Shown here: in pieces, positions 1 through 34,635 of the stretch
Position numbering within the stretch: the stretch's first letter is position 1
Layout of the letters: every line of letters begins with the position of its first letter
Source: a virus
Taxonomy: Duplodnaviria; Heunggongvirae; Uroviricota; Caudoviricetes
Virus record (IMG/VR): IMGVR_UViG_2917413769_000004
Length of the DNA: 34,875 bases
Strand: one strand, 5' to 3'
Translations under genes and position numbers: made by a program
The notes under the pieces: model-generated
Database searches by the model: none
What the model was told of the DNA's origin: nothing
Seen by the model: only the letters and a program-made list of their open reading frames with translations

Positions 1-360
1 TCAGCTCACGTTCCATCTCCGCCAGTGCCGACATGACGTGTGAAAGAAGAAGCGCCCCATGGCACTGCTGGTATCAATACTGTCTGTTAAAGAGCGGAAG
101 TGGGCACCGCGTTCATGCAATTCTGATATCAGTGCGATCAGGTTCTTAACGCTGCGCCCCAGCCTGTCCAGTTTCCACACAACCAAGGTGTCTCCGCTAT
201 TAACGCACTTTAAAGCGCGATTCAGACCGGGGCGACTGGCAACTTTTCCGCTCATACGGTCTTCAAAAATGCGGTCACAGTTTGCGCTTGTGAGCGCATT
301 ACGCTGTAAATCGCTGTTCTGGTCGATTGTTGATACGCGGATATAACCAATGATGGCCAT
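1..360 (-). CDS. gin: Serine DNA invertase, Gin/Hin/Pin/Cin family (C-terminal part cut off by window edge)
   Basis: Translation from ATG at 360: MAIIGYIRVSTIDQNSDLQRNALTSANCDRIFEDRMSGK...LVVWKLDRLGRSVKNLIALISELHERGAHFRSLTDSIDTSSAMGRFFFH, the resolvase/invertase catalytic domain; AGGAGG 7 nt upstream on minus strand. The ORF track's 23-residue N-terminal extension has no RBS. Confidence 0.9.
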   Translation of the reverse strand: MAIIGYIRVSTIDQNSDLQRNALTSANCDRIFEDRMSGKVASRPGLNRALKCVNSGDTLVVWKLDRLGRSVKNLIALISELHERGAHFRSLTDSIDTSSAMGRFFFHTSCRHWRRWNVS

Positions 361-427
361 CAATTTTCCTCCTCTATGTCGCGGTGGGAGGATTTTTGCA
401 GATTTCACTATGTGTAACTGCTTTTCC

Positions 428-496
428 AAAAACCTTGGTTTGGGAACAGCGGCAAAACGGGATGTGGGTACGGGGGTAAATCAGATACCGGATATG
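428..496. repeat. Left inverted repeat of the invertible tail-fibre segment (candidate Gin crossover region)
   Basis: 428-496 is the reverse complement of 1908-1976 (aaaaaccttggtttgggaacagcggcaaaacgggatgtgggtacgggggtaaatcagataccggatatg); both copies encode KNLGLGTAAKRDVGTGVNQIPDMS in their ORFs. Confidence 0.8.
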
Positions 497-769
497 TCGA
501 GTTTTCAGTCGGGACTCTACTGGCAAAAACTTCCAGATAAACTTGTTCAGTGGGTTCCCATTCCTCCCCATGATGGTGACCAGGTTATTACCTTGCCTGT
601 TCCTTTCCCCGGGGGAATTTCAGGCTTTGCAGTTGGTGCCGGATATGAACCAACCAGCGGTAGGATTACCACGTTTGCAATAAATGTTGGCACCGGACCG
701 ACATCAACTATTATTTCTCGCGCCAGTGACTCCATTTCTGGTGGTTCATGTATTTTGATAGGTTACTGA
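497..769 (+). CDS. Promoterless alternative tail-fibre C-terminal domain cassette (silent in this orientation)
   Basis: Open frame continues out of the left repeat with a different C-terminal sequence (SFQSGLYWQKLPDKLVQWVPIPPHDGDQ...); no independent start; would fuse to the constant fibre part after inversion. Confidence 0.65.
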   Translation, partial: SSFQSGLYWQKLPDKLVQWVPIPPHDGDQVITLPVPFPGGISGFAVGAGYEPTSGRITTFAINVGTGPTSTIISRASDSISGGSCILIGY

Positions 770-773
770 AAAT

Positions 774-1214
774 ATGAATAAATATCTGTATGACAGTAAA
801 ACAAATGCTTTCTACCCATTTATTCTGAAGGCTGACTATGAACATTCAGACACCTGGCCGGAAAGTGGAGTGGCGGTAGGGGAAGATGTTTTTCTGGAAT
901 TTGTGAGAGTGAATCCAGAGAAAGTCCGGGTTGCCGGAGAAGATGGGATGCCTGTATGGGCAGATGCACCGGAACCGACACCAGAACAAATTATTGACTC
1001 GGCAACCTGCGAAAAACAACGACGCATCGATGATGTCAATGATTATATTAACAACAAGCAGTGGCCTGGCAAGGCTGTCATAGGCCGCCTGAAAGGCGAA
1101 GAACTGGCTCAATACAATTTGTGGCTGGATTATCTGGATGCACTAGGAATAGTCGATACTTCCAGTGCTCCAGATATTGAATGGCCTATGCCTCCGGCTT
1201 CGGCGGAAAGGTAA
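774..1214 (+). CDS. Tail fibre assembly protein, alternative copy (U'-like), silent orientation
   Basis: 146 aa; MNKYLYDSKTNAFYPFILKADYEHSDTWPESGVAV... is parallel to the minus-strand copy (MIMKYRYSGETNSFYPWALFDDYKRANAWPENGVDV...); immediately follows the Sv' cassette. Confidence 0.75.
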   Translation: MNKYLYDSKTNAFYPFILKADYEHSDTWPESGVAVGEDVFLEFVRVNPEKVRVAGEDGMPVWADAPEPTPEQIIDSATCEKQRRIDDVNDYINNKQWPGKAVIGRLKGEELAQYNLWLDYLDALGIVDTSSAPDIEWPMPPASAER

Positions 1215-1617
1215 TACCAGGCGCGGTACTGGTATCGACTTTAGTCAGTTTGTAGCGGTACCGCTGCCATTCAGCCAGACGTGGCACGTCAACATCGTCG
1301 ATGTAGCCTCCTGCCTGAGCATCTGCCAGTGGGGCGATAATCGCCGTTGCCTCCGCCAGTAACGCGGATTTCTGAAATTCCGCAGCGATAATTTGTTCTT
1401 TTTTAGATGGTGGTTGTACATCTATCCATGTTGGTTTCCCATTAACATCCGGGCCGCGAGTTTTGCCTTCTGGCGGTGTGCCGCTATATTCCGTAAAAAT
1501 ATCTTCGTCAACATCAACCCCATTTTCAGGCCATGCATTAGCTCGTTTGTAATCATCAAATAATGCCCAGGGATAAAAGGAATTTGTCTCGCCAGAATAT
1601 CTGTATTTCATTATCAA
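1186..1617 (-). CDS. Tail fibre assembly protein (U-like), expressed orientation
   Basis: 143 aa, paralogous to 774-1214; directly downstream of the expressed fibre gene; 3' ends of the two assembly genes overlap convergently (1186-1214). Confidence 0.8.
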   Translation of the reverse strand: MIMKYRYSGETNSFYPWALFDDYKRANAWPENGVDVDEDIFTEYSGTPPEGKTRGPDVNGKPTWIDVQPPSKKEQIIAAEFQKSALLAEATAIIAPLADAQAGGYIDDVDVPRLAEWQRYRYKLTKVDTSTAPGITFPPKPEA

Positions 1618-32782: not shown

Positions 32783-33458
32783 TGAAAAGCTGCTGGAGAA
32801 GTTAAAAAAGCTACTTGCGCTGGCTAAATCCGATAACCCCCATGAAGCGGCACTGGCACTGCAACGCGCCCAGAAACTGATGCAAGCCTATAACATCACC
32901 CAGGCTGACCTCGCACTCAGTGATATTGATGAAAGCGTCAGTAACTACTGGGCTGCAGGTAGCGTTAATCCGCCGCGTTACATGCTGGGTCTGCTGGACA
33001 TTATCCAGGTGGCATTTGGCGTTAAGTCTATTATTCACTCCGGCTTTAAACCCAGCGTTGGCTTTTACGGTAATAAAGACCGGGTTGAACTGGCCTCATA
33101 TACATGGGAGGTACTGGCCAGACAATTAATCATGGCCCGTAAAAACTATATTCGACAGCAGAATAAAAGGATCAAAAACACGACCAAGACCAGCCGTGGT
33201 GACAAATTTGCCGAAGGGTGGGTTCTGGCCGTGCGTAGCGAGGTTCATTTATTTGCTATGTCCCGCGAAGAACGGGAGCTGGCAAGCCTCTGGCTTGAAC
33301 AAAAATACCCTGATTCAGGAACAACCTCTGGCCGCAAAGCCGGTAAATCCCGTGACGCGGACATGTCCCGCCACATCGGTTACAGAGAGGGAGAAAACGT
33401 CCGCCTGCATCAGCCTGTCAGCGGGCAGGAACAGCGGAAGCTGGGGAGTAGCTTATGA
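32769..33458 (+). CDS. Conserved Mu-like early protein (229 aa)
   Basis: N-terminus KLLEKLKKLLALAKSDNPHEAALALQRAQKLM is a helical motif recalled from Mu-like prophage proteins. Confidence 0.55.
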   Translation: MPQNNEKLLEKLKKLLALAKSDNPHEAALALQRAQKLMQAYNITQADLALSDIDESVSNYWAAGSVNPPRYMLGLLDIIQVAFGVKSIIHSGFKPSVGFYGNKDRVELASYTWEVLARQLIMARKNYIRQQNKRIKNTTKTSRGDKFAEGWVLAVRSEVHLFAMSREERELASLWLEQKYPDSGTTSGRKAGKSRDADMSRHIGYREGENVRLHQPVSGQEQRKLGSSL

Positions 33459-33670
33459 TGGCTGAATCTATTGTATGTGCCCTGTTCTGGTATGGTCTCG
33501 TGGGGTGGTGTACCGCTGAACTGCATCGCCGCTCAGGGTTTTACTCACGTTACAGCGGTGCCGGACACTGGATCAGTTGGGCCGTTATGTTCCTGTGCTG
33601 GCCTGTAGCGCTTCCTTTATATGTCGATTATATCGGTGGCGCAGGTAAAAGGAGCGGCGATGATGACTAG
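33455..33670 (+). CDS. Small membrane protein (two predicted TM)
   Basis: 71 aa; translationally coupled to neighbours. Confidence 0.45.
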   Translation: MMAESIVCALFWYGLVGWCTAELHRRSGFYSRYSGAGHWISWAVMFLCWPVALPLYVDYIGGAGKRSGDDD

Positions 33671-34088
33671 GCAGCGTCTTATTCAACTCATCCATATTGC
33701 CCGCAATGACCTCCAGATGGATGAGGATACCTACCGCCAGATGCTACAGGGGCTGACCGGCAAAGCCTCAACCAAAGGGATGGATACCACACAACTAAAC
33801 CGCGTGCTGGAATCCATGAAAAAGAAAGGCTTTTGCATTAAGTCTGCCGGGAAAGCCAGGCCCGGCTTACCGCTGGATAGCCATCCGCAGTCAAAGAAAA
33901 TCCGTGCGCTATGGCTTGAAATGGCTACGGCAGGCGTCGTCCGTGACAGTTCAGAGCAGGCGCTGGCGCTATGGGTTAAACGGGAAACGGGCATCAGCGC
34001 GTTACGCTGGCTCAGCAATGAGCAGGCAAGTAGCGTGATTGAGAAACTGAAGAAGTGGCAGCGCAGAGCTGCGGGGGTGAAGCAATGA
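33660..34088 (+). CDS. gemA: GemA-like regulatory protein (Mu gp16 family)
   Basis: Start at MMTRQRLIQLIHIARNDLQMDEDTYRQML with AGGAG RBS; position just upstream of mor. Confidence 0.6.
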   Translation: MMTRQRLIQLIHIARNDLQMDEDTYRQMLQGLTGKASTKGMDTTQLNRVLESMKKKGFCIKSAGKARPGLPLDSHPQSKKIRALWLEMATAGVVRDSSEQALALWVKRETGISALRWLSNEQASSVIEKLKKWQRRAAGVKQ

Positions 34089-34474
34089 GCGACCTGAATC
34101 AGTTTCGTAGTAAAGGGCCGGAACTGTTGGTAGAGCTGGCACAGCATACCTCTGAGACCGTCCGCGAGATTATTGATATCGAACCCGCAGTTGCCGACCA
34201 GATTGGTCAGGCCGTCGCGAACCGCATGATGCAGGTCTGGGGCGGGCAAAACGTCTATTTTCCGATGGGCATGGTCTGGAAGGTCAGCCAGCGCGATCGG
34301 GAAATCTTTCTGGAGTTTGACGGGCGCAACCATCACGAACTGGCCCGCAAATTTGGTGTTTCACTACAGTGGGTTTACAGCGTGGTGAAGCGAGTCAGAA
34401 AAGAAGAACTGGATCGGATGCAGGGCAAACTGTTTGATGGCGAACTTGATGCCGATATGGGGAAAAAGGAGTAA
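34085..34474 (+). CDS. mor: Mor-family transcriptional activator (Mor/C family)
   Basis: Start at MSDLNQFRSKGPELLVELAQH...; C-terminal HTH LARKFGVSLQWVYSVVKRVRK; ATGA overlap with the GemA-like stop. Confidence 0.8.
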   Translation: MSDLNQFRSKGPELLVELAQHTSETVREIIDIEPAVADQIGQAVANRMMQVWGGQNVYFPMGMVWKVSQRDREIFLEFDGRNHHELARKFGVSLQWVYSVVKRVRKEELDRMQGKLFDGELDADMGKKE

Positions 34475-34535
34475 TATCTGCGATCAGGCTGGTGCGAGTT
34501 CTGTTTTTTTCGGGCCGGTCTGATTTTCACATACT

Positions 34536-34635
34536 GTAAGGTTATTGCATATTCCATCCAGTCTCTTCCCATGTTGACCCAGTTCTTCCCATAATTATCT
34601 CACTTATTCCCTGTCATTTATCTCAAGTCTAATCA
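34536..34635. repeat. Prophage terminal region with phased candidate transposase-binding repeats
   Basis: Non-coding; ends ...aatca-3' and read inward starts 5'-TGATTAGACTTGA, resembling the Mu end as I recall it; TTCC(C)AT-type repeats at 34552, 34566, 34586, 34607 (14-21 bp spacing). Confidence 0.55.

Follow-up and report, generated by a model that had tools for sequence, protein, structure and literature searches.

The window analyzed here, the whole 34,875 nucleotides of IMG/VR record IMGVR_UViG_2917413769_000004, holds a phage genome up to position 34635 and bacterial DNA beyond the phage/host junction at 34635/34636. Two gene clusters diverge in it from a repressor/early-promoter switch at ∼26.8-26.9 kb: lysis, head, tail and fibre genes read away from the junction and end in a truncated gin-type invertase gene, and a transposition operon closing with gemA and mor reads toward the junction (table 1). 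Gene identities were confirmed by domain and family scans of the window proteins (Pfam, PHROG and NCBIfam). From these comparisons the window very probably represents one BcepMu-type transposable prophage of ∼34.9 kb in an Escherichia chromosome, its divergent clusters being the normal architecture of the family and not the product of a rearrangement. The orientation of the early operon, which an earlier note on this DNA had described as inverted relative to the late genes, is, judged by gene order, a trait of the BcepMu group and no anomaly.

Most of the layout given in the earlier note holds. The early operon (26923-34474, assigned by Pfam and PHROG) lies on the plus strand and runs toward the terminus, the repressor (26424-26831, minus strand, HTH_3/CI type) lies between the clusters, and mor stops at 34474, 161 bp from the prophage end at 34635, with 10.2 kb between mor and the nearest late gene, that of the holin, which starts at 23850. 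The statement that all late genes occupy the minus strand is right for gin and for the expressed fibre, tail, head and lysis genes; outside the early operon, however, dam (25036-25806) and the silent fibre and fibre assembly genes inside the invertible segment (350-1214) are on the plus strand. The name ner for the first early gene, whose 74-amino-acid product is a helix-turn-helix (HTH) protein, is the weakest of the assignments, the scores for HTH_35 (Ner-type, E=0.004) and BcepMu_gp16 (29 bits against a cut-off of 34) both being below cut-off and identity to Mu Ner being 33% over 42 amino acids.

The resemblance to BcepMu-type phages, which the earlier note had suggested, is borne out by direct comparison with BcepMu (NC_005882). 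In tblastn searches 35 of the 50 window genes match BcepMu in strictly collinear order and with the strand pattern preserved, minus-strand genes of the window corresponding to the BcepMu top strand and plus-strand genes to its bottom strand. Amino acid identities are 79% for the tail sheath, 68% for the transposase, 62% for the large terminase (TerL), 60% for the ATPase, 54% for gpJ, 53% for both Mor and the holin, 48% for GemA and 44% for the major head protein. BcepMu carries genes 1-13 (mor, gemA and onward to the transposase) on its bottom strand, with genes 17-52 on the top strand and lysogeny control at the interface, has a Tn552/IS1604-like transposase and a P2-like tail, and lacks a fibre inversion system (PMC2771037). 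Likewise, the window transposase is homologous to BcepMu gp09 (rve, Tn552/IS1604-like) and not to MuA; there are two divergent clusters with gemA-mor at the genome end and the repressor at their interface; Mu-like terminase and head genes are combined with a P2-like tail module; and the termini are of the TG...CA type, many host sites are used and the target site is duplicated (the duplication being read from a 96%-identical relative). The likeness extends to detail. In both phages mor is the terminal gene of an outward-reading early operon (365 bp from the end in BcepMu), the repressor at the interface is followed by holin, SLT endolysin, Rz, Mu-like terminase and head genes and the P2-like tail, the ends read TGA...TCA with two 10-bp sites at 11-20 and ∼34-43, a common dyad precedes the holin and protease genes, and a common 16-mer lies in the gap between genes G and I.

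The two phages are nevertheless well separated. By blastn ∼12.9 kb of 34.6 kb (about 37%) aligns at 66-72% identity, and megablast aligns the tail sheath only, at 75%. The ICTV convention for a genus is ∼70% nucleotide identity over the full length; nucleotide similarity is far below that level, and by genome-wide identity the element falls outside Bcepmuvirus sensu stricto. It also differs from BcepMu in having gin and an invertible fibre segment in place of that phage's long fixed fibre and acyltransferase, in carrying accessory Dam and DUF2441 genes versus gp18-gp20, in a repressor and first early gene without detectable similarity to those of BcepMu, and in its enteric host.

Table 1. Features of the window, in positional order, with the evidence for each; candidate promoters are predictions
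Feature	Position	Strand	Evidence or remark
gin-type serine invertase, truncated	1-360	-	Pfam Resolvase E=5e-33; 72% identical to Mu Gin
Silent alternative fibre C-terminus	350-769	+	PHROG tail fibre matches
Invertible fibre segment	421-1983		76-nt inverted repeats at 421-496 and 1908-1983
Silent alternative tail fibre assembly gene	774-1214	+	Pfam Caudo_TAP E=3e-25
Expressed tail fibre assembly gene	1186-1617	-	Pfam Caudo_TAP
Expressed tail fibre gene	1614-2456	-	Pfam Gp53-like_C; N-terminus 55% identical to BcepMu gp52
P2-like tail/baseplate genes I, J, W, V, D, X, U, tape measure, E	2459-10266	-	tblastn vs BcepMu gp41-gp51, 30-64%, collinear; Pfam Baseplate_J, Phage_GPD
Candidate Mor-dependent promoter, gpW	4477-4519	-	Dyad CTTAA-N6-TTAAT and -10-like AATACTG; conserved in PhiKM
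Candidate Mor-dependent promoter, gpE	10293-10335	-	Terminator-like hairpin before; element 51 nt before gpE in relative of ∼70% amino acid identity
Conserved 93-amino-acid open reading frame (ORF)	10365-10646	-	PHROG (with 94-amino-acid ORF: phrog_1239 and phrog_322)
282-bp insertion with 94-amino-acid ORF	10650-10931	-	phrog_322; between tube gene and 93-amino-acid gene
Tail tube and tail sheath genes	10932-12880	-	Pfam Phage_tube, Phage_sheath; 68% and 79% identical to BcepMu gp40, gp39
Head-tail joining genes, DUF2190 (block including head, protease)	12870-16464	-	tblastn vs BcepMu gp32-gp38, 43-52%
Major head protein	14400-15353	-	BcepMu homologue, 44%
Protease/scaffold	15367-16464	-	In BcepMu gp32-gp38 tblastn block
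Candidate Mor-dependent promoter, protease/scaffold	16494-16536	-	Dyad 30 nt before protease gene in relatives of 66-74% amino acid identity
Conserved palindrome/hairpin, G-I gap	16599-16634		Contains 16-mer TTTATAAAGGCTTTAC
Virion morphogenesis G, F, portal, large and small terminase	16679-21505	-	Pfam Phage_tail_S, Phage_Mu_F, Portal_Mu, Phage_Mu_Gp27
Portal gene (Portal_Mu/DUF935)	17942-19437	-	-1 frameshift near 19065
Lysis cassette and two small genes	21502-23850	-	Pfam SLT; tblastn vs BcepMu
Rz-like gene	22135-22788	-	Lysis cassette
SLT endolysin	22769-23497	-	Pfam SLT
Holin	23500-23850	-	53% identical to BcepMu gp21
Candidate Mor-dependent promoter, holin	23876-23918	-	Only conserved block in diverged window/PhiKM upstream region
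Low-GC accessory region	24226-26388		GC 0.475; no BcepMu counterpart
DUF2441 gene	24226-24792	-	Pfam
Orphan D12-class adenine methylase (dam)	25036-25806	+	Pfam, PADLOC
Truncated accessory gene	26005-26388	-	A7->A8 frameshift
Repressor, HTH_3/CI type, no peptidase domain	26424-26831	-	Pfam HTH_3 E=6e-11, Phage_CI_repr; PHROG repressor families
Early promoter candidate TTGACA-16-TACAAT	26851-26878	+	Strong sigma-70-like; flanking dyad 26852-26898
Weakly Ner-like 74-amino-acid HTH protein	26923-27147	+	Sub-threshold HTH_35, BcepMu_gp16
IclR-type winged HTH protein	27144-27449	+	35% identical to BcepMu gp12
DUF3102 protein	27459-28370	+	42% identical to BcepMu gp10
DDE (rve) transposase	28374-30143	+	Pfam rve; 68% identical to BcepMu gp09 over 581 amino acids
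AAA_22 transposition ATPase (MuB role)	30154-31320	+	Pfam AAA_22 E=3e-20; PHROG "DNA transposition protein"; 60% to BcepMu gp08
Small early genes (DUF3164, MazG-like, DUF2786, others)	31323-33670	+	Pfam, PHROG
DUF3164	31610-32221	+	
MazG-like	32486-32782	+	
DUF2786	32769-33458	+	
gemA	33660-34088	+	Pfam GemA E=3e-40; 48% identical to BcepMu gp02
mor	34085-34474	+	Pfam Mor E=1e-42, full profile; 53% identical to BcepMu gp01
Right prophage terminus ...ATCA (...TAATCA at 34635)	34593-34635		Two 10-bp sites TGAGATAA(A/T)T at 11-20 and 34-43 from end
Interrupted host ugpA	34636-34875	-	97.5% identical to E. coli ugpA in 5,424 genomes

Early and late regions are co-directional in the genome of Mu itself (NC_000929), as the earlier note had said, and the Mu repressor gene lies at the extreme left end, neither of which is the case in the window. 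What the two have in common is mor as the last gene of an early operon of ∼7-8 kb, GemA, a Mu-type terminase, portal, F and G, an invertible fibre segment with its Gin invertase at the far end, TG...CA ends, and putative late promoters in which a Mor/C dyad replaces the -35 element. Homologues of Mu proteins detected in the window comprise Gin (72% identity), a fibre-assembly fragment, G, F, TerL (47%), portal, GemA (38%) and Mor (30%), and BLAST searches of the window found none for MuA, MuB, c, Gam, Mom, T, I, L or Lys. The element accordingly lacks the set that marks Muvirus, namely MuA, MuB, a left-end c repressor, co-directional operons and Mor together with C, as well as the middle operon with C, mom and the Mu-type tail. 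Its tail genes are designated after those of P2 (FI, FII, E, T, U, D, V, W, J and I), and the phage that houses this module here is a transposable one, not an integrase phage of P2 type. The fibre switch belongs with the Din family (Gin/Cin/Pin type): the inverted repeats are 97% complementary, lie 1411 nucleotides apart in a repeat search and cut the fibre gene, and the segment that they bound measures 1.56 kb versus 3 kb in Mu.

A true Mu relative of the Muvirus type, with its early block recently inverted in the lineage or by misassembly, might be read from the Mu homologues of Mor, GemA, TerL, F, G, portal and Gin (28-72% identity) and from an invertible segment, which shows site-specific inversion to be at work in genomes of this type. 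We regard this as most improbable. BLAST shows no similarity of the transposase to MuA or of the ATPase to MuB; homologues of the Mu-type repressor and of Gam, C, Mom, T, I, L and Lys are missing and the tail is P2-like; the early block is flanked by no inverted repeats; and target duplication is 6 bp in a relative, against the 5 bp of Mu. The divergent layout is, moreover, ancestral to the group, since it is shared with a BcepMu as distant as 35-79% amino acid identity.

The limits of the element bear on a second alternative, that the window is a chimera of a late-gene element beside a separate early/transposition element, with a hidden terminus between 23850 and 26900. Relatives share the window's sequence as far as ...TAATCA and then continue into differing host genes (rlmC, gadC and genes for an aldolase and a decarboxylase); an insertion in ugpA was not met in the complete E. 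coli genomes searched. In E. coli 21KM1392 a relative of 34,952 bp (1367-36318 of comparison locus L002) lies in rlmC between two copies of CCATAG, and joining its flanks with a single CCATAG restores an intact rlmC that matches prophage-free genomes at 300 of 300 positions, so the whole element moved as one unit with a 6-bp duplication. Both ends of that element start TGAT and carry 10-bp sites (YGMGATAWWT) at 11-20 and 34-43. The same design is found at both ends of BcepMu, for which TG...CA ends have been described (PMC2628397). By register with the 21KM1392 element, position 1 of the window is 300 bp inside the gin-proximal end; the left terminus lies, by this comparison, ∼300 bp beyond the window and is expected to read TGATGCGCCGCGCGATAAATG... 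inward.

Searches of the entire window for the terminal 26-mer (up to three mismatches), the 10-bp end site and the combined end-plus-site architecture returned only the true end at 34593-34635, and so no second terminus, either in 23850-26900 or at any other internal position. A composite origin might be seen in the lower GC content of the 23.9-26.9 kb stretch (0.43-0.51) and in its genes without a BcepMu counterpart, but this is the usual accessory-gene slot adjoining the repressor. The identical cluster junction recurs in BcepMu, Klebsiella phage KP12, PhiKM and 61 E. coli genomes, and a single 6-bp duplication surrounds the entire element in 21KM1392, with rlmC recovered over 300/300 positions. 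On these sequences the chimera has next to no probability and is, for practical purposes, already refuted. The value of the result for annotation is that the element should be entered as one transposable unit rather than two, and ugpA as disrupted by a prophage.

Comparison with enterobacterial Mu-like prophages, which the earlier note had proposed along with Mu and BcepMu, finds a layout collinear with BcepMu and the enteric relatives alike. A clone of Klebsiella phage KP12 (OM835952), Escherichia phage Phi06_2974 B (KM389306) and E. coli prophages such as that of 21KM1392 are 94-96% identical to the window over ∼90% of its length, and Escherichia phage PhiKM (PQ738613), which its depositors file under Bcepmuvirus, is ∼86% identical. 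Among 5,426 complete E. coli genomes, 61 carry at least 80% of window positions 1-25000 in one place. Gene order, strands and the Mor-end terminus are the same in KP12, Phi06_2974 B, PhiKM and the E. coli prophages; the window differs from these close relatives in its fibre cassette (539-1959) and in a 282-bp insertion (10650-10931). KP12 has an extra gene after mor (34523-34852 of comparison locus L001) and its DUF2786 gene is split into two coding sequences (32881-33494). The divergent layout is already known: it was reported for BcepMu in 2004, and genomes almost identical to the window have been deposited. According to PMC3417384, citing Summer et al. 2004, relatives of BcepMu occur in Salmonella Typhi, Photorhabdus and Chromobacterium, and the enterobacterial ones (SalMu and others) have been known since 2004; the layout therefore has little weight as a discovery.

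Mor is the sole member of the Mor/C family in the window by homologue search, a second Mor/C gene having been searched for there and not found. The protein is 30% identical to Mu Mor and 35% to Mu C, has a Mor domain with C-terminal HTH as expected of the family, and is predicted to bind a dyad standing in place of the -35 element. Footprinting against PhiKM and BcepMu yielded one conserved block 5' of each late cluster, with a common dyad, CTTAA-N6-TTAA(G/T), 23-24 nucleotides before a weak -10 element ending in CTG. At the Mu middle promoter Pm, Mor binds a 16-bp dyad of two 5-bp repeats with a GC-rich hexamer spacer, centred at -43.5 (PMC4390567); we placed the Pm dyad from this stated geometry. 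The blocks were expressed as a Mor-box pattern (TAA-N6-TTAA-N22-25-NANNCTG, refined partly by inspection of Mu Pm), which has six matches in the window against 0.04 expected. Four of the six lie on the late strand directly 5' of late operons, those beginning with holin, protease/scaffold, gpE and gpW; their -10-like elements read GATGCTG, CAGACTG, CATACTG and AATACTG, respectively. Counterparts exist in more distant phages: in relatives at 66-74% protein identity the pattern stands 30 nucleotides before the protease gene and 51 before gpE, with dyad half-sites and positions conserved while spacers vary, and an element related to the gpW candidate lies 5' of BcepMu gp49. The candidate before the protease/scaffold gene occupies the position of Mu PI. 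Among IMG/VR loci, BcepMu-related DNA yields 76 matches to the pattern in 463 kb and unrelated DNA a single one in 439 kb; in Mu the sole match falls at 9175-9217, within the gap between mor and E18 where Pm lies. Two preliminary late-promoter motifs, TAAAGCNGATTAAAAG and then SCTTTAAWATC, each captured part of the signal, and the dyad-plus-(-10) pattern supersedes them.

Mor, a diffusible activator that works as a dimer, most likely acts in trans on the candidate late promoters of this element. The earlier note had hinted that a mor gene so far from its targets is odd. The difficulty disappears once Mor is taken to act in trans on target promoters that can be recognized in the sequence; mor is kept as the last early gene, and its adjacency to its target is a peculiarity of the Mu middle promoter. 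We envisage that loss of repressor would let the early promoter (26851-26878) drive a 7.6-kb operon toward the prophage end, yielding a Tn552-like DDE transposase and an AAA+ partner for replicative transposition, with mor transcribed last, ∼7.2 kb from the promoter and in the same distal place as in Mu. Mor would then turn on at least four minus-strand late promoters in trans, at 23.9, 16.5, 10.3 and 4.5 kb, in which the distance from dyad to weak -10 is that of the Mor site in Mu Pm. Because a C gene is absent, the cascade would have two tiers, early and then late. Other Mu-like phages without C have already been described (PMC7354579).

Several points weigh against this account of the element and its control. 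The left end and target duplication of this copy lie beyond the window, and three frame-disrupting indels could mean a non-working copy or assembly errors. The scheme leading from Mor to the promoters is read entirely from sequence, and the single match in Mu is not a fully independent one, the pattern having been tuned in part on Pm. BcepMu matches the dyad only (5' of holin and gp32) and not the -10 part, the gpW candidate leaves almost no leader before the start codon, and two of the six matches lie elsewhere, inside gin and 5' of dam. The family-wide late-promoter signature, together with the conserved central palindrome described below, is thus offered as a by-product possibly useful to those working on transposable phages, as a prediction and not a finding.

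The match near dam (24844-24887, plus strand) is ∼150 nucleotides 5' of the gene, on the early strand, and is absent from PhiKM. That within the gin coding region (169-212, minus strand) shares GCGTTAATAG with it and could be a chance occurrence, part of a recombinational enhancer or an outward-reading promoter. Leader hairpins follow three of the late candidates (23851-23875, 16465-16493 and 10267-10292), starting at the ...CTG of the -10 element, and hold the Shine-Dalgarno sequence in their 3' arms (TGTCTCC...GGAGACA, CTGTCCC...GGGACAG and GCTCTG...CAGGAGC).

This copy of the prophage may be defective. Compared with KP12 and E. coli 21KM1392 it has three uncompensated coding indels, and the window alone carries all three. 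In gin, two nucleotides are gained near 41-46 (CATGTGATG becoming CACACGTCATG), giving a product of 119 amino acids whose stop codon is window positions 1-3; the intact gene of relatives would extend ∼222 bp past the window. The fibre switch is probably locked in this copy because the truncated Gin lacks the C-terminal DNA-binding part. One nucleotide is lost from the portal gene near 19065 (CCC to CC), splitting it into ORFs of 173 and 370 amino acids, and one is gained in the accessory gene near 26012-26019 (A7 to A8), leaving 127 amino acids versus 175 in E. coli 21KM1392 (534 bp in KP12). That the window holds a decaying, non-inducible remnant in which the regulatory logic no longer operates is a serious possibility, to which these changes, with Portal_Mu split, lend support, though we lean somewhat against it: the remaining 45-plus genes are all full length, at 93-96% identity to their counterparts in relatives, the transposase, ATPase, Mor and repressor genes are intact, and two of the indels alter the length of a homopolymer (C3 to C2 and A7 to A8), as is typical of sequencing errors.

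The palindrome in the G-I gap lies ∼48% along the genome. It consists of an outer stem, GGGGCTGTA/TACAGCCCC, around an inner perfect palindrome, CCTTTATAAAGG, and the 16-mer within it is shared without change by BcepMu, KP12 and E. coli 21KM1392 and is also present at 58 G/I-flanked IMG/VR loci. The outer stem differs between lineages, and the surrounding intergenic DNA is fully diverged between BcepMu and the enteric relatives. The strong gyrase site of Mu is found in the same gap, centrally in the genome, and expression of Mu mom depends on C. The palindrome has no sequence similarity to Mu in that gap. By analogy, and as an unlikely proposal, the palindrome might be the counterpart of the Mu strong gyrase site, and Mor might separately also drive the orphan Dam as C does mom. 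Were the first of these true, a need for a central topological element would be common to transposable phages whose transposases are unrelated and whose early operons point in opposite directions.

Remaining observations concern individual genes and intergenic regions. The transposase also weakly matches IS481/IS21 DDE profiles. An intrinsic terminator was looked for 3' of mor (34475-34635) and not found, so early transcripts may leave the prophage into flanking host DNA, antisense to ugpA. In the PhiKM record a host ABC-transporter fragment (20200-20740 of comparison locus L005) connects the fibre end with the mor end, as expected from packaged host DNA assembled into a circle. The 282-bp insertion, missing from KP12, E. 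coli 21KM1392 and PhiKM, is not a tandem duplication of its neighbour gene of equal length, as the ORFs are unrelated and no tandem repeat was found. PADLOC matched only the methylase in the accessory region and recognized no defence system there. A plus-strand ORF in the gap between holin and DUF2441 genes (23982-24305) has a good Shine-Dalgarno sequence but neither a family match nor annotation in relatives, and we leave it as unproven. On the minus strand, 3' of the DUF2441 gene and before the holin promoter, a terminator-like hairpin at 24059-24071 (CACGCTTAGCGTG and then a T-rich tail) would shield the late operon from transcription of the accessory genes on the repressor side.

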